Assembly (NCBI GenBank): GCA_054600435.1
Contig: BAAIJX010000022.1
Coordinates: forward strand, 62,001 to 126,000
DNA length: 64,000 nt
Direction of reading: 5' to 3'
Origin: Neophaeotheca triangularis
Lineage: Eukaryota
Made by a program: the position numbers and the translations under genes. Each line of letters begins with the position of its first letter. Within the stretch, counting starts at the first letter, position 1. Under the pieces are notes generated by a model that did no database searches, was not told the DNA's origin, and worked only from the letters and a program-made list of their open reading frames with translations. Below, one piece after another: positions 1 to 64,000 of the stretch.

Positions 1-755
1 ATACATCTACGAGGCCAATACGCACCCGTACCGAACTGCAACCACTGGCGGCGTGCCATTTGGCTCCGGCCTCAACACCGTCGCCAACTACGATTGGACC
101 ACGTTCGAGCAGATCAAATGGGACGAGTGCTTCATCAACGAGGCCGATTGCCTGACCCCGAAGGGCTTCTCTTTCATGCGTATGCAGCTTGAAGATGGAG
201 TAGAGATTGACCTCTACAACCTGCACGCAGATGCAGGGTAAGGACTTGCAGTTTGCTCGCTCTTGGCCATACGCTGACACCATGATAGAAGCGAAGACGG
301 CGACATCGAGGCCCGCCGGGCTGGCATTGAGCAGATGCTAGCATACATCGAAGAGAACTCCGTCGGACGAGCAGTCATCATCGGAGGCGACACCAACGAC
401 CGCTGGACCAACGAGGGTCGCAGCATCGACCTGCTTACCGACGCTGGGTTCGAGGACCCATGGGTCGAGCTTATCAAGGGCGGCACTTACCCTGCCGCAG
501 ATGGTGAAGCGGACGCTTGCGATGTTCCGGCTGCTTCTAACGAGTGCGAGGTCGTCGACAAAGTCTTGTAAGTATACGTGATTCGATTGAGCGTTGATGG
601 TGTGGGACCGACAAGACACCAGCTATCGATCTGGGGACTCTGTCAGTCTGGCTGCCAATGAGTGGTCGTACGAGTCTCAGTACTTTTTGCAGGAGAATGG
701 TGATGAAGTGAGTGATCACAACCCTATCAGGGTCGAGTTTACTTGGTCGACTTGA
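1..755 (+). CDS. Endonuclease/exonuclease/phosphatase (EEP) family protein, 5'-truncated by the window edge; introns about 238-288 and 568-623
   Basis: Frame 2 reads YIYEANTHPYRTATTGGVPFGSGLNT...YNLHADAG. Exon 2 contains GGDTN and VDK; exon 3 contains SDHNPI and ends at TGA 753-755. NxH, GDxN, D and SDH are the EEP catalytic motifs. Both introns have GTAAG donors and YAG acceptors. Confidence 0.8.
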
Positions 756-942
756 GTGTCGTCCAAAACCTGGTTCAAACAATACGAACGGGAGGAAATG
801 CTCCAACTGCCTCACCGCATCTTCCATGCATTTATACCAGATTCCTCCCCACTTTTTTAGCAAGCTTACCTACCTTCAAGTATCTATGCCCAGGTGGATG
901 TCCGTTCCCTCAATCCATACCGCACATTCTTCCCCACGGGTG

Positions 943-978
943 CCCCACACTTCAACCCCACACTTCAACCCCACACTC
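943..978. repeat. 13-bp tandem repeat (CCCCACACTTCAA) x about 2.7
   Basis: Directly visible in the sequence. Confidence 0.85.
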
Positions 979-1437
979 TCATCCGACCTCACGTTGCTTG
1001 AACCCCCTCCAAGCGACTTCCAAGGTACCTTAGGTACTGTAGGTCCAAGGTCACTTTATCCCTCGGAGGATGATGCCCCGCGTTGCCGGGTATGCTTTGA
1101 TTAAGGTACCTACTGCAGGTACGTACCTCCAGGTCGAACCATGTCCCTCTCTCTTCTCCTCTCCCCTCCGCTTCCCTCCTCTTGCGCGCGACCTTCGAAC
1201 CTTCGACCGCATGTACCTCTCCCTTCTCTTCGCATCCCGTGCTACCTTCACTCATGCTGCTTTGAAGCAAACGCAAGGCATCCGTGAACGCTTCCGGCCG
1301 GTCACAAGGAATCTTCAACGGCAGCTCGAAGCCATCTTTGGAGCTTTGTTGATGCCCCACGCGCTCGTGCCTGGTAACAGAACAGCTCCCTTGTCTTCCA
1401 CTTAAAGTCTATTCATGATAAGATCTAGATAGCCACC

Positions 1438-4400
1438 ATGTGGCCCAGTTCGCGGCCCTTGAGGCTGCACAAACCAACTTTTACCAGAAGCCCGACGTGT
1501 TCGGCACTTTCTCTCCCTCCGCTGCTCGTGGCACGCAGAGTGTTCTGCAACTCGGCACGATGGCAACAAGGCCAGACTCAAGCGGCGGCGGCGGCGGCAG
1601 CGGCGGCGCCAGAAACCTCAAAGGACGAGGCCGAAGCAATCCCGTACTCGAGACTCACCATCGGCGTGCCGACGGAAGTTCGCTCCGGGGAGCGTCGAGT
1701 CGCCATGACGCCACAAAATGCCGCTCTACTACTCAAGAAAGGTTTCAAGCAAGTCCTCGTTGAGCACGGCGCAGGCTTCCAAGCCCAATTTCCAGCCCAT
1801 GAGTACGAAAAGGCCGGCGCCACCATGGTAAACAGCGCACGAGTATGGTACGATTCCGACATCGTACTCAAAGTCCGTCCACCGCGAATTACCGGCCCAC
1901 CCGGTGGAATCTCCATGACTTCTGGCAACAACTTCGTCTCAGGCTTCAAAGAGGGGGGCGTGGTCATCAGCGTTCTGCAGCCGAATGTCGACAAAAACAA
2001 GAAAGTCGTTGATATGATGGTGCAGAAAGGTCTAACGAGTTTTGCCATGGATTTAATCCCGCGCATTACAAGGGCCCAGACTTTTGACGTACTCAGTTCG
2101 ATGGCGAATATTGCCGGTTACAAAGCTGTGCTCGAGGCTAGTAATCATTTCGATCGATATATGACCGGCCAAACGACAGCGGCGGGAAAAGTGCCACCTG
2201 CAAAGGTCCTCGTCATTGGTGCTGGTGTGGCGGGATTGAGTGCGATTGCTACGGCTCGTCGACTTGGTGCGATCGTAAGGGGTTTCGATACCCGATCTGC
2301 CGCACGAGAGCAAGTGCAGTCGCTTGGCGCTGAATTCATCGAGGTGGAGATGGAGGAAGACGGCTCAGGTGGCGGCGGTTATGCGAAAGTGATGAGCAAG
2401 GAGTTCATCGAAGCTGAGATGAAGCTGTTTATGAAACAATGTCAGGAAGTCGACATTGTCATCACCACCGCTCTGATCCCGGGACGAGAGGCACCCACCT
2501 TGATCACCGAAGAGATGGTCGCAGCGATGAAACCCGGCTCCGTAGTGGTCGATCTCGCAGCAGAAGCTGGTGGAAACTGCGAAATCACGGTCCCAGGCCA
2601 GCTCACCCACCACAAAGGTGTCACGGTCATAGGCTACACGGATCTGCCCTCGAGACTGCCTACTCAGTCATCGACCCTCTACTCCAACAACATTACCAAG
2701 TTCCTCCTCTCCATGTCACCAAAAGAAAAACACTTCGGCGTTGACATGAACGATGAAGTCGTTCGCCGCTCAATCGTAACCCATAAAGGTCAGCTCGTGC
2801 CTCAGCTGCCACCTCTGGCACCCCCGGCGCCACCTGCACAAAAAGCCGCCGCGGAGAGCAAAGAGCCGGAAGTCGTAGCGCTCACCCCCTGGCAAAAGAC
2901 CGTCCGTGAGGTCTCAACAGTCACGGCAGGCATGGGCTCAATGGTTGCGCTGGGCAAATTTACCTCTCCCATGTTCATGTCCAACTTCTTCACGTTCGGT
3001 TTAGCGGGCTTGATCGGCTATCGCGTTGTCTGGGGTGTTGCGCCAGCTCTGCACTCTCCCTTGATGAGCGTCACCAACGCCATCTCCGGGATTGTAGGTG
3101 TAGGCGGTTTTTTCATCATGGGAGGCGGATACCTCCCGGAAACCATCCCTCAAGCTCTAGGCGCTGCTTCGGTTTTGCTGGCTTTCGTCAACGTCTGTGG
3201 TGGATTCGTCATTTCGAAACGCATGCTGGATATGTTTAGACGGCCGACGGATCCGCCCGAATACCCTTGGTTGTACGCTGTGCCTGCTGTGCTGTTCGGG
3301 GGCGGGTACGTGGCCGCTGCAAGCACGGGTATGGCTGGACTTGTGCAGTCGGGGTACCTTGTTAGCAGTTTAATGTGCATTGGTTCTCTGACTGGGCTGG
3401 CCTCGCAGTTGACGGCTCGTCAGGGAAATATGCTGGGCATTTTGGGCGTCGGCTCTGGGATTCTCGCTTCCCTCGCCGCAGTGGGCTTCCCAACCGAAGT
3501 CTTGATCCAGGCAATCGGAGTGGCAGGCATTGGCGGTGTCATCGGAGGCCTGATCGGTCGTCGCATCACACCAACCGAGCTCCCCCAAATGGTTGCAGCC
3601 CTGCACTCCGTGGTCGGCCTCGCAGCAGTCCTGACCAGCATCGGCAGCGTCATGGCCGCTATTCACCACGCCGACATCGACACGCTACACCTCGTGACGG
3701 GCTACCTGGGTGTCTTGATCGGCGGCGTAACCTTCACAGGCAGCATCGTAGCCTTCATGAAACTCGCCGGCCGCATGTCCTCGCGCCCCTTTGTCCTACC
3801 AGGAAAACATCTTGCCAACACGACCCTCCTAGGCACCAACATTGCCACCATGGGCGCCTTCCTAACTCTCGCGCCCGGCGCTCCAGCCATAGCCGCAACG
3901 TGCCTAGGCGTCAACACGGCCCTCAGCTTCGCCAAAGGCTTCACGACCACGGCAGCCATCGGCGGCGCCGACATGCCCGTCGTCATCACCGTACTCAACG
4001 CCTACTCCGGGTTCGCGCTCGTAGCCGAAGGCTTCATGCTCAACAACCCACTCCTAACAACCGTGGGCAGTCTAATCGGCGTCAGCGGCTCCATCCTCAG
4101 CTACATCATGTGCGTAGCCATGAACCGCAGTCTCACCAACGTGCTCTTCGGGGGCATTTCCGCCCCACCGCCCACACAACACAAAGTCACTGGCGAGCTC
4201 ACGGCCACGAACCTCGAAGACACGGTCGAAGCGCTGCAAACCGCCAGCAACGTCGTCATTGTCGTCGGCTACGGCATGGCGGTCGCCAAAGCCCAATACC
4301 CGATTGCGGAGATCGTGGCGCTGTTGCGCGCGAAAGGGTGTAAAGTGAAATTCGCCATTCATCCAGTAGCGGGGCGGATGCCGGGGCAGTGCAATGTCTT

Positions 4401-4837
4401 GCTAGCCGAGGCGAGCGTGCCGTATGACATTGTGCTCGAGATGGATGAGGTGAACGAGGAAGGGTTTGGGGAAGTGGATTTGACGCTGGTAATTGGCGCG
4501 AATGATACCGTTAACCCTATTGCTTTGGAGAAGGATAGGTGAGTAGCTTTGTCCTTTTCTGCCGGTACTTTTGCTAGTATTTGGGTGGAGTTCTTCTTTC
4601 TTGCGTTGTTTCGGTTGCAATCGCGACGCTGACTTTGGTTCCGCAAGCCCCATTGCAGGTATGCCCATCATCGACGCCTACAAGTCGAAGCAAGTCATTG
4701 TCATGAAGCGAGGCATGGGGAGCGGGTACGCGGACATTCCGAATCCGATGTTTTACGCGCCCAACACCAAGATGCTGTTTGGGGATGCCAAGAGCAGTTG
4801 CGATGCCATCCAGGCTGCGTTGAATGCCGCAAAGTAG
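1438..4837 (+). CDS. NNT: Mitochondrial NAD(P) transhydrogenase (fused alpha+beta); intron 4539-4647
   Basis: Presequence-like N-terminus; motifs [53 protein letters not shown] and GANDTVNP. Splicing restores DSPIAGMP...KRGMGSGY. Confidence 0.96.
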
Positions 4838-5074
4838 ATGGGACGGAAGAGAGGGGGATTGCGGGGAAGAAAGGCTGGCTGGGAGTACGGACTGCCCCTT
4901 TGTATTTTTTCCCGCGTGGCGATCAGGCGTCTCGGCGTAGTCAAGTCATATGCGGCTTTTACAGTACGTACGGGTATCTTTGCACATTCCACTCGTCGCT
5001 CTCCATTTCTCGCGTTCACAACTACCGTGCTCGCATCATCACCATTCCGCAAAACAAAGCGTCCCACCCATCAA

Positions 5075-6562
5075 TTACAGAAAGTAATCCGCCACAGGCT
5101 TCTTGGCCGGCATACCCCGACTATCCTGGGGCGCAGCATCGAAAACCCTATACCTCCTCCCGGGCCCCGTCCTATGGCCACCGCTCCCCTCACTCCTCCC
5201 CAAATCCCCATTGCCACGCGGCAAATACCCAGCATTACTGCCATCCTCCCCCAACTCCAAGATCGCCGCAACATTGCCGCAACGGTAGCAATAATTCGGC
5301 GCGCTCCAGACCGTGACAATGGTGCTCTCGAACATTTCCTTGAAACCCTCCATGACCAGCTGGTGAGCGCGGCAGATGAGGGATAAGTCGTTTTTGTGGT
5401 TGAAGCACTTTACAATATCCGAGCCGAAGAGGAAACCGGCGCCGCGGGGGCTTAGACCCCAGCCGTCTATTTCGTCCGGGTCCGACCAGAGGAGATCGCA
5501 CATGGCGCCTTCGTGGGGCACTTCTTGTTTGCGGTCTAGGAGGCGGATTTTGTCTATCGAGTCGATTAATGGGGAGAGGCCGCCGTGGACGCAGAGGACG
5601 GCGCCGCCGGAGTTGGGTGAGGAGGCGGTGCCATTGCTGTTGCTTCCGGCGCCTGTGCCGGGGGTGCCTTGTTTGGACTGGGTTTGGGTTTGGGAGGGCG
5701 AGGCTTGGAGGTCGCTGAGCTGGGAGGTGTCGTCGGTGAGTTGAGAGTTATTAATGTGGTTGGAGGATTGGCGGGTGCGGGGGAAGCGGTTGATGATTTG
5801 GCCCGTGGCGTTCATGATTTCGATTTCAATTTCGTCGAGGGAGGAGGTGGGGCCGGATTGCTGTTGTGGGTCTTGGAAGGAGGCGTCGGTGGTGGCGAGC
5901 TCGGTGGCTGCGCCTTGTACCAGTGCGCCCAGGGCTAGGTAGTCGAAGACTTCGCAGCAGTATCGCCAGACGTTAGCGCTGCCATACTTGCGAAGGCATT
6001 CATCGTAGAAGCCGTAGACGGTGGTGATTTGTCGTGATTCGTGGTTGCCGCGGATGAGGGTGATGCGGTCCGGGTAGCGGACTTTGAGGCAGAGTAGGAG
6101 TAGGAAGGATTCCAGGGAGTAGAAGCCACGGTCAACGAAGTCGCCTGTAGGGAATTAGCTCCTAAGTCTCTTACTGACTGGTGAATTCCCGCCATGCTCA
6201 CCCATGAAGAGGTATTGTGTATCCGGCACATCTCCGCCTACTCTGAACAGCTCCATGAGGTCGTGAAATTGGCCATGAATGTCGCCACAAATCTGCGCAG
6301 CCTATAAGCATCATCCCGTGCAAGCTGTTCGAACATGCTGCAAGAAGGCTCACCGTCACCGGCGCATCTACGCCAACCACATTACCCTCCTCAATCAGCA
6401 ACTCTCTCGCCTTGTAGCAAAGCTCGCGGACTTGTGTTTCCGGTATCGGCCGACATGCTCGCAGTTGGGTGATGGCTCTTGATGTGTCGGTCGTCAGCGC
6501 GTTCCATTCTTGTCGTAATCGCGATGAGTCGCGGCCTCTGCTCACTTGTCCAGATCGCTCAT
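5075..6562 (-). CDS. PPH3: Ser/Thr protein phosphatase 4 catalytic subunit; introns about 6478-6545, 6294-6353 and 6145-6201
   Basis: Reads [14 protein letters not shown]..., with GDIHG, GDFVDRG, RGNHES, VHGGLSP and SAPNY motifs. The C-terminus KKPVADYFL is the PP4-type tail. Confidence 0.9.
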
Positions 6563-6984
6563 GGCGACTTTTGCGCCTGACGGTGCGCCTAGAGACTCTC
6601 ACGCCTACGCCGACCGCACACACGCGCGACCTTCTCGCTTTGCTCTTGACTATTCGCGCGTTTGAACCTCGTGAGTGTCTGCCCGTATATTGCTGAATGC
6701 CTTCTTCTTTTGACGCTTCGCCCCTCGCGATGTTGAGGTAGTTTACAGGGCGACGATGAACTTGCGCTGTAGGGTATTGTCTGTACGGCGAGTAAGTGCG
6801 AGAAGGAGAAAGGAAGACGGCGAGTTGGGAGTCGGGAGGGTTTCAGAGTAGAATATATACAATGATCAATCTTTTCCAGTGGATGGATGTAGGAGGTACA
6901 TCCAAACGCGATCGACGCTCGCCCGAAGATACGCGCCAAGCTGTCCAACATGGAACCTTAGCAGGTAAGGTACCTTACGCCACC

Positions 6985-7157
6985 AAGATTAGATGCTAAT
7001 CTCATTTTATCTTATCTCATCTCATCCCTCTTGATCTTGTCATATCTAATCCCGAAACATCTTATCTTATCTCAAACAATCTTATCTCATCTTGATCGCC
7101 CCTCACCCCTCCCCCCTTCCTTCCTTCCTTCCTTCCGTCTCAACAAACCTTTATCTG
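6985..7157. promoter_or_regulatory. Cluster of GATA (YTATC/HGATAR) elements in the divergent PPH3 / FAD-oxidase promoter
   Basis: About 6 TTATC copies, for example tttatcttatctc, cttatcttatctc and cttatctc. Function is inferred, not shown. Confidence 0.45.
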
Positions 7158-7730
7158 ACCTCACCTCCTTGCTCCCGTCGGGCGTCTCCACTTCACCTCT
7201 GAAGTCCTTAGTAAGCAATCCCTACAAGATTCCGGTGAAAAGACAGGTAAGCTGCACCACCGCCCCTCTCATAGATAGCTAAGGTAAGTATCCCTCCACA
7301 TGTCGCAATCGGACAAACTTCCACTCCCTCTTGGCCCTGTTTCGTGTAATAACAATAATAATGTTTAACAACATCCTGACCTCGGCCCAATAATTTCAAT
7401 AACCTTTTGCGATTACAACCTACTCGGCATCTTTCTCTCCGGATTAACACTTCCCGCATGTCGACTGGCTCGCTTATAGATGGGGAGCGGAGATCTAACT
7501 CTTAGTGGAGATTCGGACCAAGCGATCATTGGTACAAGACCTACGACACTTTAGAGACCCTATTGAAGGTAGCGTTGGAGATTGGAGAACGTGGAGAGCA
7601 ATGTTCTGTCTACTTAACTTAACGACCTCACGTCTACCTCCTATTTCACAAGTATCAAGTGTTTCCCTTACTTTCCCAACTACAACGCTCCCCCTTATGT
7701 TTGTCTCTCATCTTGCATACATCTTCAAAA

Positions 7731-26858: not shown

Positions 26859-28253
26859 TCACCTCGGCCGCAGCAAGACGAACATCAAACCCATTACCGC
26901 AACACCGGTAGCCGCACCCTCGAGAGCGATCGTCGTAATTTCGGCCTTTTTGAGCTGAATGATCCGCTCGCTAAAGAGATCCTGAAAGCTTTCTTGATAA
27001 GATTGCCAAAGGCCGGCCCAGGTTGAAAGGTCGGCAGGCGGAAAACTTGCGGAAGGCACTTCAGCTGTAGCAGGCTCCGGAATGACCTCGACAGCCTCCT
27101 CTGGCAGGACTTCGCCCGCGGCTAGCGCAGTCTTTCCAGCATCTTCCTCCTCTGGCACAGTGGCATCTAGCGGTTGCGTGGCAGTTGTCTTCTCCTCTTC
27201 TTTCACCGCCTCCTCAACAACCTCGACAGGTGTCCCAGCTGGCTCGACAACCTCGTCGATCTGCTTCTCGGCCTCGGCAACAGAAGCAGCAGCAGGCGCT
27301 GGAGCAGGAGCGGGAGCAGCCACGGGCAGACTCCTCTCATCGAGCGCGGTCTTGACCTGCGCAACAATCTTTCTCCGTCGATACGGCTCAAAAATCAACA
27401 ACTGCGCCAACAGCAAAACGATATTGACCCCCATCAGCCCGAAAGTAACCCAAGTACTGTTCCTGCGGATCGTATCGCTCCAAATCTGCTCCTCGTGATA
27501 CTGCTTGCGCTCCAATCGCTCCAACAGACTCCTAGACTCATCCAACCGTCTTTCAGAAGCTGACAGATCGTCCCGCGCAGCTTGCACATCCTGCTCATTG
27601 AGGTGTTCAGAGCGGATTAGCGACATGTATCGCTCGAGATCGGCAGGAGTCCAGTTGCTCTTCCGCTCAAGCAGAGCGACAACTTCCTTCTGACTAGAAG
27701 TCTGTTTGGCATGGCTATCACTGTAGCGGCCCTTGGCTTCTTCTACCATTCTATGGCAGTCCTTGACATCCGCCTCTTGTTTTATAATGTCCCCTCGTAA
27801 GGCTTCGATGCCGGAGTAGTCTGTGCCCGTGAGAGTGTTGATTTGCTGCCCGGCTGTGGAAGCACGTGCTAGTACTTGGTCCATTATCTTCGTCCATCGT
27901 TTTGAGAGATCGGATCGTTTCTGCGCCATGCGTGAGGGCAGGCTCTCTTGCTTTGTGCTGGAGGGGTGTTGTCCTTCCCTTCCAGCGACGTCGGGTCGAT
28001 CTGGTAAATCATCTTGGAGTCTCGTCTGGGACGAAAACGCCCGTATTACTGCCCATCCTTCGAATTTCCCTTTCCCTGCTAAACCTTCCCTAACGTTGGT
28101 CCGACTTCTGCACCCGAGGCAGACCCATGGCTTTGAACGCTGCTCGCCAAAAGATCTCCTCACTACCGTGGAGACATCAGCACCATCTCCGAGTATTCTG
28201 CTTGGGTTCGCTCTCCGTAGTGCCGACGCGCCATAGCGAGTCAATGGTTGCAT
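26859..28253 (-). CDS. SHE9: Mitochondrial inner-membrane protein She9/Mdm33
   Basis: TGTDYSGIEAL, SQKEVVALLERK, YHEEQIWSDTIRRNSTWVTFGLMGVN and a C-terminal TM segment. Confidence 0.92.
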   Translation of the reverse strand: MQPLTRYGASALRRANPSRILGDGADVSTVVRRSFGEQRSKPWVCLGCRSRTNVREGLAGKGKFEGWAVIRAFSSQTRLQDDLPDRPDVAGREGQHPSSTKQESLPSRMAQKRSDLSKRWTKIMDQVLARASTAGQQINTLTGTDYSGIEALRGDIIKQEADVKDCHRMVEEAKGRYSDSHAKQTSSQKEVVALLERKSNWTPADLERYMSLIRSEHLNEQDVQAARDDLSASERRLDESRSLLERLERKQYHEEQIWSDTIRRNSTWVTFGLMGVNIVLLLAQLLIFEPYRRRKIVAQVKTALDERSLPVAAPAPAPAPAAASVAEAEKQIDEVVEPAGTPVEVVEEAVKEEEKTTATQPLDATVPEEEDAGKTALAAGEVLPEEAVEVIPEPATAEVPSASFPPADLSTWAGLWQSYQESFQDLFSERIIQLKKAEITTIALEGAATGVAVMGLMFVLLRPR

Positions 28254-57451: not shown

Positions 57452-58262
57452 GGTGGCGTGGTGTGCCTGGTGTCGGAATCTTTTGACGCTGTCGCCAACT
57501 CTTTAACGTCGGGGGTGTTGTATTGCTGTCGCGATGATTTGAGATAGTACCTAGCTATGTTCCAAGGAGTAACAGCCCCTTGTTAGGCAGACCAATGCTG
57601 CAGCTGGAGAGTGGAGGTTGCTTGCTAGTGCCGCCGGCTGGACGTTGCGCCTTCTTTCGACGACCTATATCTATCGTTGACACGTGACAAAGAGTATTGA
57701 CGGGTGATTAACGATGGAAAAAGACGGGAGAGGAGAGAGAGAGAGAGATAGAGGAAGATGGACAAGGCAAAAGAGGCCACAGGTTCAGTATTAAGGTATT
57801 ATTACTACCTTACCCTTAGTATTTATTCACCTTGCGTGGCCTGACCGGACTTGCTTTGCTGACCGGCCTGACCCTGACCCTTACTTGCCTTACCTCTCCT
57901 AGTTTAACCCGGCGCCACGGTCGAGGAACGACAACTATCCTTATCTTCACGTGATTTTGTGTGTTATCACCCTAATCGGGTATAGCGCGGGATAGACCGA
58001 GCTTCAGCGTTCGGGTCACGTCAACATTATTTCGACCCATACCAAACTTGACAAGACCTACTTCACCACTCGACAGGTTCCCATTCGCTACCATACCGTA
58101 GCATTGGTACAGCGGGCGAATTCGGTTATCGACAGCGATTCAAGCCCTGGTGCTTATCCATCTTCCGCACTACCTACTCATCACTCACCTCTGCTGGCGA
58201 CACCACCAGCTCATCGCCCACTCGCTAGCTACCCCAGCTTCGGCTGGCAACAAAAGACCACC

Positions 58263-60831
58263 ATGTCCTTCTTCGGCTTCGATCCCAGCGCGCAGCCCGG
58301 CTCGCGACCACAGCAGCAGCGGCAGGGAGGTGGTGGTGGTGGTGGTGCCCCCGGCCGTGGCATGTTCGACCAGCATGATCCCTTCGCGGAACTAGGCCAA
58401 GGCGTTGACCCCGACGATGAGGCTCTCAACTTCGACGACACCTATGACGGACTTGGCAAATCGCTCGATGAATCTGGTGATACTTTCAACGACGATACCT
58501 TTGGCGACGAACAGCCCGTCACGAGGCAGAGCGTTGGGAGGGACTTTGATTTTGCCGGAAACACTGCAAAGGCTAGAGGCGTGCTTCTCGAGGAGCAGAC
58601 TCTGCACCATGCGCGCCAACCAATGCAGCAATTTGCTGCTCCAAGTAGGCCTGCAAAGACCGGGTACGAGAGCTACAAGCAACCAGACTACATTCCCAAG
58701 CTTGAAGCCGATGCAAGTATCTGGGGGAGTAAGATTGCGAAGAAGCCAGAGCAGGCCCCTAAGCAGGAGGCCGCGCCAGCTGGGAGGAAGATGATGAGTT
58801 TGGATGAGGTGGAGGCGGCTATGCGTGCTCAGACGAAGCCACCTGCGCCGCCTATGCCGCAGGATACGGAACAGCAGAGTGCGGGTCTGAGAGCTATGCT
58901 TGGTGTTGGCGGCCCTGCTCCCCAGCAGCCACCGCCGCAGCAAATGCAACAGAAGGCTCCTCAAATTCTGCAACGATCTCAGCAGCAGCAGCAAGCTATG
59001 CCCAACATTCCGCCTTCATCTACGCCAGACTACAACCTTCGCGCTCCACAAATTCTTCAAAGAGAGCAGTCTCCTCAACTACCGCAGCAGCCGAGAGACT
59101 TTCAAGGGCCACCACAGCAACAGATGCAATTCCAGCAGCCTCCCCAAGGACCCGCCCAACAAGTCCGTGGACCCCCTGTGCAGCCGCCGCAGGGCCCAAT
59201 GCATCCCATGGCGCACCAGCGTGGTCCTTCCTACGGTGGACCTCCCATCACGCAGGCGCAACAGATGATGCAAATGTCTCCCGAAGAGCGTGAACAGTAT
59301 CTCGAGGAGGAAGCGAAGCGTGCCAAGCGCAACCACAAGATCTTCATGCTTTCCAAGAACAACGGCGTCATGACACCACAAGATAAGAACTTCATCACCC
59401 GCATTCAACTGCAACAACTGTTGACAGCTACTGGCGGCATCGATAACGCACCTGGCAGCGATCAGCAGCTAGCGGAAGACTTCTACTACCAAGTTTACTC
59501 GCAGATCCGAGGCCCGCCTCGTACGGAGCCCGGCCAACCATTGAACCAGTTCGCCCAAACTTACCTCTTCCAAACTGGAAGTCGCTACGGCTATGGTCGT
59601 AACAGGAATCATCCACGCGGTGGCGATAACCACGTTCAGCGAATGGAGCAGCAGGTCGCCCGCGCTGTCGAAGCAGCCAAAGCTCGCCCCAAAAACAAAC
59701 ATCTCGTGGTAGAAGGCTCCCTTGGCAAGATTGCATTCAGTAATAGCAAAACGCCTCGTCCTTTGCTCAATCTTAAACGGAACGACTCGCAGGCAAAGAT
59801 GGCCGCCAAGCCCATGTCTGTGGCAGACCGCAAGACGGCTCTTCGCGATATTGAAAACGTCTACTCTACGCTCATGAGGATGGAAGACCACGAGCGACAC
59901 CTGCCACCTCCACCAAACGAGGAAAGCCCTCCAGATGTCATTGAAGGTCACATGCACTGGCGAAGTGAGATGCAAGCACTCAACCAGCAGATCTGGGCCG
60001 AATTGAAAGTGATGGAGCCGATAGGGCACAAGTGAGTCTTGTCTCCACCCTTTCCCTACTCTACCTCTAAACTAATACTCCTTTTTCTCCAGCCCCACCG
60101 CCCCCCACCCCTTCATCGCCCTTCTCTCCCACGGCAAAGGCAAAAAGGTCTTCCCCCGCGTCTTCCGCCACCTGGACGACCAACAACGCCTGACCGTTCT
60201 CACCCTCCTTGCCATCCACCTGGACAGCCTCGACGTCATCCGCCTTGCCCACCCGTCTCCAGAAAACACTCCCCTCCCCCCTCGCATCAAAGAAGAAGTC
60301 GATCTCTTCTCCGCAGCCGTCATCCCCCAACTCTTCACCTACGTCAACGAAGCCCCCCTCAACATCGTCATCGGACTCCTAGGCCTGGTCCTCGACCGCT
60401 CCCAATCTCTTCCCACCATTGCTCGCACCAAAGTCGGCTCCAAATTCCTCATGATGCTCATCTCCCGCGCCGAGCTCGCCAAAAACGCCGCCCCACCCAA
60501 TTCTCCAGACGTCACCGAGTGGAACTCCCTCTACACTCGTCTCTTCGACGCCTTGGAGCCGGTGCTACCCTGGCTCTTCAACGCGAACATCCCCGTCGCT
60601 ATGACTGCCGTGGGTGAAGACACGCACGTTTGGCAGTTCTTAGCTGCCATGGGCGTGGGCACGGGCGGCGATAGCGGTTTGCAGACGAGACTGGTTATGG
60701 GGGTCAAGGAGCGCGTTATGGAGACTGTTGGGGTCTCTAAGACGCTACCGCAGGAGATGGCGGAGAGGAGGTTGGCGGAGGTGAATTTGTTCATGAGGGC
60801 CATTGGGCTGGATGTTGAATTGCTTGGTTGA
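58263..60831 (+). CDS. PAT1: mRNA decapping activator Pat1; intron 60032-60092
   Basis: MSFFGFD start; FNDDTFG, MTPQDKNFITRIQLQQL, EDFYYQVY, SLGKI, HPFIALLSHGKGKK and NLFMRAIGLD. Confidence 0.94.
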
Positions 60832-61225
60832 TTGCTATTGGGTGGTGTGATAAGCGGCGAGAGCGGGTGTCGTTTTTGGTATAGTTGCGGCTTGACGGAC
60901 GAGTGACGGGATTGCGCTGTACCGTGGCATGTGAAATGCGTCTTCTAGCGGCGTCCTACCGGCCTCTTCTTCCAGGCTAGACGACGTGGTTTCCTTTTCC
61001 TTTCACTTTTGCTCTTCTTATCTATTGATCAAAAACTATCCATTTACCCAGTAACGTCGTTTACCCTCACAGCTTTGCTCTGCCTCGAGCCAGCCAAACC
61101 GAAGACTTCCCAACTCAACTCCCTTGTCTCTCCCGTCCATTCTTACCAGTCTAGATGATAATTGCCTCTGAGCTCTCACCACAAGCCCCAAAATCCCAAA
61201 GACCCCGGGACCCTCCACCGACAAG

Positions 61226-61363
61226 ACCGCTCAGCAAACTCGGGAGTAGCGTGGATCTCCTTTTCTTAAGGTACGCATCCGCGACACCGAAGCGATAAAA
61301 AAGAGCTCGCCTCTGTAAGCATGGTTCGACCGTGCTATTACCAACCGGTCTCTTTCAACATTT
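61226..61363 (+). ncRNA. Candidate box H/ACA snoRNA
   Basis: Hairpin 1, then H box ATAAAA (61295-61300), then hairpin 2, then ACA (61358-61360) + 3 nt. G.U pairs favour the + strand. The pocket is complementary to a conserved 18S segment recalled from memory. Confidence 0.55.
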
Positions 61364-61660
61364 GGGGTGGAGGTACAAAACGAGTACGCATGATGCAAGA
61401 CTGGCGGCAGAGGCGTGTCTGAGTTCCAGGACCGCTCGGGGTTTGTAACTGTCTGGCTCTCGAGGGGGGGTGGGGGAGGCCAGTGGCAAGTGAAAGAAAA
61501 AGGGCACGGGAGGGGACGGTGATGGGAGATACGGGAGAGACCAGAAGGCGACTTTTCTTGGAGCAAAAACACCACGAGACGACATTTTGTTCAAAACCAG
61601 CTTGGTACCTACACAACTCTAGCAATTCCCCCAAAGCAATATATGCTAATACGTACCCTT

Positions 61661-64000
61661 TTACTTCCCCTTCCTCTGAGGTCTAGCATTCTTCTCCCGC
61701 CTCTTCTCCTTGCCCCTCCTCATCTTCCTCACATCATCCACGCCGCGCAACTCACTCTTCCCCTTACCCTCCTTCCCACCGTCCGCGAACCTGCCCCTCT
61801 TAGCCTCCTTGGCACTCTCGACCTTCTTCTTCCGCGCCTCGTAATCATCGCGATATCGATCCGCAGCCTTGGGAGCCTTCTCCTGCTTATGCTTGAACCG
61901 CTTGCCACCGGCACCCTGCTGCCCGCCACCACCACCACCATTATGCACGTGCGCGGCCGAATTAGCACGCTCCTGCTCGCCGACTCGCGGCAAGCGCTCG
62001 AGGCGGTTGGCTTTGCGCCAGGCGTCGAAGCGACCGGAGCGAAAAGAAGCCGGGATGCGCTGCCCGCTCTCGCCGACAATATACTTGCTGCCCTTGCTGC
62101 CGTCCTCGTCGTTTTCGCGCCGCACGTACTTCTTGCTCTTCTTGTCCCAGCGCATGCCTTTGGCCTTGGTGCCGCCGCTGCTTCCGTCGCCCAGGGCTTT
62201 GGACTCGTCGTTGGCGAGGTCCATGGTTGCACCCGCGGCTTGCGTTACGAAGTTTGAGCTGGCTGGGTTGTAGCCGCCCGATTGCACGCCGTAGCCTTTG
62301 TCTTCGGTGAGGTTGATGGAGGTGGGAGTGTAGGACATGAAGTTTTCCGTGTCTTGCCAGGTGTGGGCGCCTTTGCGGCGTTTGTTGGAGTTTTGCTCCG
62401 TGGGCGCCGTGAAGGTGAGCTCCAACTCGTTGTCTGAGGCGTCTTCCATACCTGCTGCGTCCGGGCGAGTGAGGACGAGATCGTCATCGGAATCTTCTTC
62501 GACCGTCGCAGGGGTTTTATCTGCGGGTGCGGTGCCGTTGGTAGACGACTTGAACTCGGACTGTTCTTCATCTGAATCTTCCTTCATACGATGCTTTGGC
62601 ATGACTTTGGCCCTCCTATTCCGCATAATCTCCGCGGCTTCGCTCTGCGCACCTTTCCTACCAAGCTCGAAGATTGTCTCCTGGGGCCTGAACCCACTGA
62701 CCTTGGCGAGAAGGTCCTGACGAGCCTGATCCTCGCCAACCTTATTGTCATCGTGAAACAACATGTTAGCACCCTTCTTGCTGTCGTCTTGATTGAGTTG
62801 TTTGACCCTCTTGACACTCTCTGCAGAAGCCGGGTTACGGGTGCGCAGGTATTGTTTCTCTCCCTTTGCGGCAACGTCGCGTTGCATTTGCAGGTCTTCG
62901 TTATCATGCAACAGAACACCGACTTCCTCGATGCAGCGTTCCAGCCCGTCGCGAACGAAAGAACCAACAACGATGGTGTTTTTGAACATGTCCCGTTCAA
63001 ACTCTGCCCGGCCTACCGTGAGCTTACGGCTCAGGAATAGCTGTAGGTCTAGGAGATAGGGCATGTCCTTTTCGCCAATCAGACTATAACTCCATCCGGA
63101 TTTACCTGCTCTAGCGGTTCGACCGACGCGATGAACGAAGATCTTGGGTTGTGAAGGGAAGTCGTAGTTGATGACATTAGCCAAAATCGGAATGTCCAAC
63201 CCTCTGGCAGCGACGTCCGTAACAATCAGGATATTTGTGAGACCGGCGCGAAACTCTTGAACTTGAATCTTACGGGCTGTTTGATCGAGGGCTCCGTAGA
63301 CGTACGACGTGGAATAACCAAAGAGCTTGAGCAGTTCGTTGAGATACTCGACATGGTGTTTTGTCGCGGCGAAAATGACTGTCGAGTGCTTAGAGGGCAT
63401 ATCCTTTGCATCCGGGCCATCAGCGCCTCGCTTGCGCTTCTTTTCGGGTTTCTTTGCGTTTTCTTGAGCCTTGATACTCGCTTCGGTAGGCCCAGTAGGC
63501 ATCTTGATCACTTCCTCGAGCAAGTGGATCAATGCACCCTCCTTCTCGGCAGCTTTGACGGTAAAGAAAGCACTTTGCAAGTCAGGCGAGACCTTGCTCT
63601 CAGCATCTAGACGAACGAGTTTGGGGTCTTGCAATCCAGCTCTGGCAAACTCGACGAGACTCTTCGGCAGAGTTGCAGAGAAGAGTAGGGTTTGTCTCGA
63701 CGATGGCAAGGAGTGCATAATCTCGGCCAACTGAGCTGCGAAACCCATCTCGAACAGTCTGTCCGCTTCGTCAAAGACCACATACTGCACGCTGCTGAGC
63801 TCCAGCGACATTTCGACTTTCAAATGCTCGAACCGTCCAGGAGTAGCGATGATGATGTCCGGATTGCTTGCCATGCTGCTGAATTGGTCTTCTAAGCTGT
63901 CTCCACCTACCAAGAGTGTTGTCCTCAAGTCGGTACCTCTGCCCAGCTCCTTGATGACCTTGAGCGTCTGAAGCGCCAACTCTCTAGACGGAGAAAGAAC
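61661..64000 (-). CDS. DBP10: ATP-dependent RNA helicase Dbp10, 5'-truncated by the window edge
   Basis: DEADRLFEMGF, SATLP and HRVGRTARAG; C-terminal DBP10CT motif WDKKSKKY...GESGQRIPASFRSGRFDAW. Confidence 0.95.
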   Translation of the reverse strand, partial: VLSPSRELALQTLKVIKELGRGTDLRTTLLVGGDSLEDQFSSMASNPDIIIATPGRFEHLKVEMSLELSSVQYVVFDEADRLFEMGFAAQLAEIMHSLPSSRQTLLFSATLPKSLVEFARAGLQDPKLVRLDAESKVSPDLQSAFFTVKAAEKEGALIHLLEEVIKMPTGPTEASIKAQENAKKPEKKRKRGADGPDAKDMPSKHSTVIFAATKHHVEYLNELLKLFGYSTSYVYGALDQTARKIQVQEFRAGLTNILIVTDVAARGLDIPILANVINYDFPSQPKIFVHRVGRTARAGKSGWSYSLIGEKDMPYLLDLQLFLSRKLTVGRAEFERDMFKNTIVVGSFVRDGLERCIEEVGVLLHDNEDLQMQRDVAAKGEKQYLRTRNPASAESVKRVKQLNQDDSKKGANMLFHDDNKVGEDQARQDLLAKVSGFRPQETIFELGRKGAQSEAAEIMRNRRAKVMPKHRMKEDSDEEQSEFKSSTNGTAPADKTPATVEEDSDDDLVLTRPDAAGMEDASDNELELTFTAPTEQNSNKRRKGAHTWQDTENFMSYTPTSINLTEDKGYGVQSGGYNPASSNFVTQAAGATMDLANDESKALGDGSSGGTKAKGMRWDKKSKKYVRRENDEDGSKGSKYIVGESGQRIPASFRSGRFDAWRKANRLERLPRVGEQERANSAAHVHNGGGGGGQQGAGGKRFKHKQEKAPKAADRYRDDYEARKKKVESAKEAKRGRFADGGKEGKGKSELRGVDDVRKMRRGKEKRREKNARPQRKGK

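Follow-up and report, generated by a model that had tools for sequence, protein, structure and literature searches.

Introduction

In box H/ACA RNAs the top of a guide pocket lies 14–16 nt upstream of the H box or the ACA box. The best point of comparison for the locus described here is the set of 20 H/ACA snoRNAs cloned from N. crassa, of which 6 or 7 are reported as orphans, several as restricted to the genus, and two as sitting in 3′ UTRs (Liu et al. 2009, PMC2780460). For this set the published account gives 17 predicted targets, those in 18S being sites 105, 463, 996, 1509, and 1733, and it also records how hard such genes are to predict: 131 H/ACA predictions were obtained with snoGPS, only 3 of them overlapping the 20 cloned snoRNAs (PMC2780460). 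Canzler et al. likewise describe target predictions made from a single sequence as unreliable (PMC5824354).

Here we consider a 138-nt stretch of the PAT1-DBP10 spacer (61226–61363, + strand), which a preliminary description had read as a candidate box H/ACA snoRNA that may guide an 18S pseudouridine not known from budding yeast. We report its anatomy, the missing conservation of its boxes and stems in a close relative, and the rates at which its layout and its rRNA match arise by chance.

Methods

The window is the whole 64-kb stretch of DNA that was analysed, and all positions are numbered along it unless another sequence is named. Minimum free energy (MFE) folds of 61226–61363 were compared with those of 200 shuffles on each strand. 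An architecture scanner recorded every ACA preceded by a hairpin of −15 kcal/mol or lower that ends 1–3 nt before the ACA and has its helix top 13–16 nt from it, with an ANANNA just before that hairpin and a second hairpin, also of −15 kcal/mol or lower. These thresholds were set post hoc so that the candidate passes, and the test thus favours the candidate. The scanner was applied to both strands of the window, to 7 dinucleotide shuffles of the whole window, and to 41 non-redundant fungal loci (268,210 bases).

Guide targets were sought in proxy fungal rDNA contigs that contaminate bacterial assemblies, located by an 18-nt motif and annotated with Rfam: L032 (complete 18S, 5.8S, and LSU 1–2215), L008, L021, and L034 (18S), and L094 (full LSU with group I introns). 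The scan considered every U, with contiguous pairing, G-U pairs allowed, and at least 3 bp on each side; six pocket registers were tried in all. The numbering of L032 is that of C. thermophilum, as the m1acp3-pseudouridine falls at 1188 in both and the pattern of U's agrees over 871–926.

Complete fungal-type 18S-ITS-5.8S-LSU units occur on L008, L021, L022, L027, L032, and L034, short contigs labelled bacterial, in assemblies whose host labels are Streptomyces, Pseudonocardia, Spirillospora, Blastomonas, and a deltaproteobacterial MAG; this rDNA is eukaryotic contamination of public prokaryote assemblies. In a Nostoc sp. assembly, the 31.7-kb contig L094 carries a 6.9-kb eukaryotic LSU rRNA gene (307–7236, − strand) with at least one group I intron (Rfam Intron_gpI, 3576–3996), which probably comes from a co-cultured or symbiotic fungus. 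Two short fragments that score as eukaryotic LSU (model positions 2200–2320 and 2439–2605) lie at 3656–4061 (− strand) of L093, a 1.16-Mb Mangrovicoccus contig, and may stem from chimeric assembly or from an unusual insertion.

For close relatives, four DNA runs were aligned over 60600–61700. Of the three sequences compared with the window (X2, X3, and X4), X3 is the only informative one, being diverged; it is labelled as the same species as the run from which the window presumably derives and covers 60600–61588 in one contig at a depth of 110. Distant relatives were represented by 47 metagenome loci that encode relatives of DBP10.

Results

The candidate lies in the middle of an 829-bp spacer (60832–61660) between two convergent genes. 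PAT1, on the + strand, has its main ORF at 58104–60035 (Pfam PAT1, E = 1.1e-203) and its last exon at 60451–60831 (Pfam PAT1 profile positions 748–862 of 862, E = 2.9e-45), and the DBP10 helicase gene occupies 61661–64000 on the − strand (Pfam DEAD, Helicase_C, and DBP10CT; 942-aa product, recovered at 100% identity by protein search). The candidate is on the PAT1 strand, 395 nt downstream of the PAT1 stop and 298 nt from the 3′ end of DBP10. On the opposite strand, ORFs of 114 and 98 aa overlap it, neither with a Pfam match, and no TATA-like element was found just upstream. Between the candidate and the DBP10 stop runs a long purine- and G-rich tract (61440–61560, + strand), which is pyrimidine-rich on the strand of the DBP10 3′ UTR. 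The named homologues of this DBP10 are many, all from Dothideomycetes of the Mycosphaerellales/Capnodiales type and at most 70% identical; one further relative has a DBP10 that is 90% identical.

All the elements that had been read in the sequence exist where they were placed, and the MFE fold of 61226–61363 on the + strand is a hairpin-hinge-hairpin-tail structure. Hairpin 1 (61228–61294) is an irregular stem-loop in which the four helices described earlier (CGCT/AGCG, TCGG/CCGA, CGTGGAT(C)/ATCCGCG, and CCTT/AAGG) are all formed. It is followed directly by the putative H box, ATAAAA (61295–61300), which has the form ANANNA; another ANANNA, at 61299–61304, would run into the lower stem of hairpin 2. 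In hairpin 1 the upper stem stops at 61283, only 11 nt before the H box, a non-canonical distance when set against 14–16 nt. In hairpin 2 (61300–61355; −17.3 kcal/mol) the stems and internal pocket were recovered as described: a lower stem AAAGAG/CTCTTT (61300–61305/61350–61355), an upper stem with a 2-nt bulge (61315–61325/61329–61341), and between them a pocket with a 9-nt 5′ strand, CTCGCCTCT (61306–61314), and an 8-nt 3′ strand, CAACCGGT (61342–61349), within which the computed fold forms three pairs (TCG/CGG). The candidate ACA box (61358–61360) lies 16 nt after the upper stem, as claimed, which is the upper limit of the canonical 14–16 nt, while the three nucleotides said to follow it reflect merely the end coordinate that had been chosen for the feature. 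The H/ACA-like geometry of hairpin 2 is real.

The excess of structure is modest and confined to one strand. On the + strand the MFE is −38.8 kcal/mol, as compared with a mean of −31.8 (sd 3.5) among shuffles (z = −2.01), a stability matched in 3 of 200 shuffles; the − strand has no excess structure (z = −0.44; 62 of 200 shuffles fold equally well). The architecture scanner found two matches in the window, one in total in the seven shuffled windows, and one in the 41 fungal loci. The H/ACA layout is therefore uncommon, at roughly 0.15–0.4 per 64 kb, yet it is not beyond chance at genome scale. With 20–50 genes per fungal genome, real H/ACA genes would number about one per Mb, so that false scanner matches would outnumber true ones before other evidence is considered. 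The second match in the window (27206–27369, + strand), with hairpins of −16.7 and −27.5 kcal/mol and an ANANNA at 27280, is almost certainly a false positive, lying antisense within a 464-aa ORF (26859–28253, − strand).

The pocket of hairpin 2 had been fitted to a conserved segment of fungal 18S, and this fit was recovered in the proxy sequences. In the 18S, 5.8S, and LSU 1–2215 of L032, exactly one site pairs with the pocket over at least 8 bp, namely U894 of 18S, where 3 bp (TTG) form on the 5′ side and 8 contiguous bp (AGAGGTGA, one of them G-U) on the 3′ side. The pairing is present in all four proxy fungal 18S sequences, in a highly conserved helix, and the search of LSU with the same pocket gave nothing better. 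Position 894 follows C. thermophilum numbering and corresponds approximately to U896 in S. cerevisiae, as judged from the fragments GUG (902–904) and AGU (884–886) of the yeast table. A match of at least 11 bp, with at least 3 on each side, was reached in only 4.2 kb of rRNA by 5.1% of 5000 shuffled guide pairs and by 10.8% of 5000 pockets sampled randomly along the window; the 11-bp match is not significant. Hairpin 1 was also thought to carry a guide, but in the register proposed for it no site of at least 8 bp occurs in the proxy 18S, 5.8S, or LSU, and another register yields only one 3+6 match with three G-U pairs. How easily such rRNA matches occur is shown by the pocket register taken from the X3 fold, which pairs over 7+6 bp at position 495 of the L032 LSU; we rejected this as chance, the site being in variable D2 and present in one of four LSU sequences.

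The earlier statement that yeast has no pseudouridine near this site was right: the mass-spectrometry inventory of yeast rRNA lists no modification between Am796 and Am974 (PMC5062969). No yeast homologue of a guide for U894 is thus to be expected. Nanopore direct-RNA data on rRNA modification have been published for C. thermophilum and C. globosum (Wild et al. 2025, PMC12723226), and in their frequency sheet U894 is called as pseudouridine at 0.24 in C. thermophilum (0.27 with U>C) as compared with 3e-6 in C. globosum, U892 at 0.43 as compared with 0.0005, and C895 of C. thermophilum at 0.10. These 18S calls come from a raw frequency sheet, the curated per-site table covering 26S only, and the authors read the excess of calls as temperature-dependent “statistical” modification (PMC12723226). 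Between 54 and 68 18S sites exceed 10%, with an estimated 46 true (PMC12723226); given some 462 U's in the 18S of L032, a random U would be called with a chance of 12–15%. The calls in C. thermophilum raise the plausibility of the site but say nothing about the Dothideomycete from which the window derives; on the C. globosum values, U894 is not generally modified in Pezizomycotina. In the C. thermophilum sheet, calls cluster densely around 18S helices 22–23 (831–943), comprising 831 (0.22), 833 (0.74), 859 (0.58), 886 (0.61), 915 (0.18), 918 (0.49), and 943 (0.19) besides 892 and 894; all of these would be absent from yeast, and the published account assigns no guides to them (PMC12723226).

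Of the close relatives, X2 and X4 hardly differ from the window and are uninformative but for G61253A and T61262C, which both carry; X2 is 99.3% identical overall and retains the ACA and the pocket of the window. X3 differs from the window at 28 positions of 60600–61588, split evenly between the 138 nt of the candidate and the 851 nt outside it (14 each), so that the candidate has diverged by 10.1% as compared with 1.6% in its flanks, a sixfold excess (binomial P = 6e-6, Fisher P = 4e-6). Eleven differences fall within 61335–61366, a segment that runs from the 3′ arm of hairpin 2 through the ACA box into the tail, whereas the rest of the candidate (61226–61334), with 4 of 109 positions changed, is indistinguishable from the flanks (P = 0.12). 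In X3 the ACA box reads AAA (61359) and the next three bases are also changed; position 3 of the H box is A>G (61297). In hairpin 2, 61341 C>G alters the closing pair of the upper stem, 61342 C>A the first base of the pocket, which would pair at the position adjoining the target U, and 61353 T>C a pair of the lower stem. The differences within hairpin 2 are at 61335, 61338, 61341, 61342, 61352, and 61353.

The preliminary description had named conservation of the boxes and covariation in relatives as checks, and the outcome went against the candidate on both counts, with the ACA, the H box, and the first guide base changed in X3 and none of the seven changes at paired positions across X2, X3, and X4 compensatory. 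Three of these changes keep their pair by wobble (61290, 61335, and 61352) and four break it (61253, 61262, 61341, and 61353); among the latter, G61253 is A in all three relatives, which breaks a central G-C pair of the hairpin 1 upper stem. Scored on the X3 variant, the structure of the window reaches −24.3 kcal/mol as compared with −38.8 kcal/mol on the window itself. X3 instead refolds hairpin 2, its new helix taking in part of the 5′ guide, and its 61296–61363 still forms a hairpin (−16.9 vs −18.0 kcal/mol) in which the pairs differ.

The substitution cluster in X3 has no local template or paralogue, as no variant 12-mer was found elsewhere in the window. Further along, at 61559–61681, X3 is represented by two contig variants of equal depth (about 55 each vs 110 elsewhere) with 1 and 9 differences from the window, which suggests two haplotypes with patchy divergence, as a mixed sample or a genome that is diploid or hybrid would yield. 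With one of these variants 7% diverged, patchiness seems to come with the X3 comparison itself. X4, a contig from an air metagenome, is otherwise near-identical to the window and skips 44 bases at 61078–61121 (with one A instead), so that the spacer is polymorphic for an indel on the upstream side of the candidate.

Among more distant fungi, the 47 metagenome loci yielded no homologue of the candidate. Retention of the spacer, proposed earlier as a test by synteny, was seen in none of them: PAT1 was found beside DBP10 in 0 of the 47. A blastn search of these loci with 61140–61420 returned only one 13-nt match (E = 3), and a search for hairpins with a target-complementary guide returned 5 pattern matches, none with an H/ACA-like fold. 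A protein query of the bacterial and archaeal genome collection found no relative.

The candidate belongs to no known family, as the comparison with Rfam suggested earlier has now made plain: the whole window has no match to Rfam 15 at gathering thresholds. At E ≤ 10, the interval 61100–61500 has no H/ACA family match and returns only SNORD105 and a lncRNA fragment, neither of them an H/ACA family on the candidate. The SNORD105-like stretch (61140–61226, + strand) scores 14.4 bits, against a gathering threshold of 45 (E = 4.2), and has a GATGA followed 10 nt on by a CTGA; as it is without a D box or a terminal stem, we judged it to be noise rather than a C/D snoRNA.

Discussion

The locus has the outward form of a box H/ACA snoRNA, and the balance of the evidence tips somewhat in favour of its being a chance H/ACA-like fold in unconstrained spacer DNA rather than a selected snoRNA gene. 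Computational H/ACA screens produce coincidences of this kind in large numbers. Under this explanation, the two hairpins, the ANANNA, the ACA, and the 11-bp match to 18S would have come together by coincidence in a spacer where the convergent PAT1 and DBP10 transcripts end, and the DNA would have no guide function and would evolve freely; we infer that no stable RNA is made from it. Several observations lead us to favour a chance fold. The substitutions in X3 hit both boxes, the first base of the guide, and several stem pairs, and none of them is compensatory; the guide match lacks significance; hairpin 1 is non-canonical and without a target; Rfam has no match; snoGPS predictions overlapped poorly with cloned snoRNAs in N. 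crassa; and the other scanner match in the window lies antisense in an ORF. The X3 cluster, if the fold is indeed fortuitous, would have the look of unconstrained sequence between lineages, falling on what is supposedly the most constrained part of an H/ACA RNA. What counts against a chance fold is that the layout is uncommon, the folding strand-specific, the 18S match unique and in a conserved helix, the U at its centre called as modified in one fungus, and the site intergenic and on the PAT1 strand.

The strongest competitor, which we nevertheless consider unlikely, is a genuine lineage-restricted box H/ACA snoRNA that guides U894. Such an RNA would derive either from PAT1 read-through transcripts or from a promoter of its own, the lack of a TATA-like element just upstream being a point against the gene, and would assemble with Cbf5, Nop10, Nhp2, and Gar1. 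Its hairpin 2 pocket would pair with 18S 891–893 through the CAA of the 3′ strand and with 896–903 through TCGCCTCT of the 5′ strand, with U894 and C895 left free at the foot of the upper stem, where Cbf5 would isomerise U894; hairpin 1 would be structural only. The hairpin-ANANNA-hairpin-ACA layout with its 16-nt spacing, rare in shuffles and in other fungal DNA, speaks for such a gene, as does a single 3+8 bp match to 18S, although only 3 bp of that match lie on the 3′ side of the pocket and its chance rate is 5–11%. A pseudouridine call in C. thermophilum at exactly U894, with the neighbours 892 and 895 disturbed, also fits, but in the same data C. globosum has no pseudouridine at 892 or 894 (PMC12723226). 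Since yeast is unmodified there, the want of a yeast homologue is no argument against a guide, and H/ACA snoRNAs in 3′ UTRs are reported from N. crassa; among the snoRNAs in the supplements to that work, however, a text search found the target-complementary motif only in one C/D snoRNA, CD54 (PMC2780460).

The comparison with X3 weighs most heavily against a genuine guide: changes have struck the ACA, position 3 of the H box, the closing pair, the guide base next to the target U, and one pair of the lower stem, divergence in the candidate is six times that of its flanks, and the A at 61253 in all three other genomes breaks the upper stem of hairpin 1. It should be kept in mind that a relaxed ANA consensus might accommodate ACA>AAA, and that individual guide snoRNAs are often dispensable. 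Because X3 is a single relative whose differences are clustered, and because guides are so often dispensable, a loss in one lineage would be compatible with function in the strain of the window. The full proposal, that a Dothideomycete-lineage H/ACA snoRNA in the PAT1-DBP10 spacer guides U894 of 18S helix 23 (approximately yeast U896), we hold to be doubtful. Were it true, window-type and X3-type strains would amount to natural guide-intact and guide-broken alleles for pseudouridylation of U894; one lineage-specific guide would be added, along with a new pseudouridine site in a conserved helix of 18S close to the E/P-site platform; and a site with only nanopore calls in a thermophilic fungus would have its first candidate guide. 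It would also be a member of a well-known class, and as such a modest addition to the fungal snoRNA catalogue.

There is a slim chance that the locus encodes a young, decaying, or orphan H/ACA RNA, expressed and bound in a snoRNP in the strain of the window and inactivated in the lineage of X3, with no rRNA target or with another target such as an snRNA or mRNA. The architectural evidence for such an RNA is the same as that for a rRNA guide, patchy conservation fits a dispensable gene, and orphans and genus-restricted H/ACA snoRNAs are on record from N. crassa (PMC2780460); against this, the pattern of divergence carries no sign of any constraint. We see just as little likelihood in a structured mRNA 3′ end, belonging to an extended PAT1 3′ UTR (+ strand) or to a convergent termination zone and without any snoRNP role. 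The position would suit it, 395 nt past the stop of PAT1, which shares the strand, and 298 nt from that of DBP10, as would the hairpin of similar stability, though of different pairs, that X3 keeps at 61296–61363. Against it, a z of −2.0 is unremarkable for the ~900 such windows in 64 kb, and no conserved partner or motif was identified.

A chance fold, the reading we prefer, carries a caution of its own: a fold that looks like textbook H/ACA and matches rRNA over 11 bp can arise in unconstrained spacer DNA, and one modestly diverged relative sufficed to show that the defining boxes are not maintained.

With the H/ACA families of Rfam 15 (yeast snR, Aspergillus Afu, and others), the candidate shares only the general architecture of the class. 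It resembles Nc ACA1–20 of N. crassa more closely, having, as they do (Liu et al. 2009, PMC2780460), two hairpins with a putative ANANNA hinge between them and a candidate ACA box at the end, along with, in hairpin 2, an internal-loop pocket 14–16 nt upstream of its box, an intergenic or 3′-UTR site, and a single-guide design that relies on hairpin 2. It departs from them in size, being 138 nt where nearly all of theirs are reported as longer than 160 nt, and its 18S site is not among the 17 targets predicted for them (PMC2780460). Its boxes, moreover, are changed in the nearest diverged relative. It also resembles the predictions of snoGPS and similar programs, in that a plausible fold, boxes, and a bipartite rRNA match are all derived from one sequence; it is unlike a random prediction in that its U coincides with a pseudouridine called by nanopore sequencing in one thermophilic fungus, a coincidence with a chance of about 12–15%.
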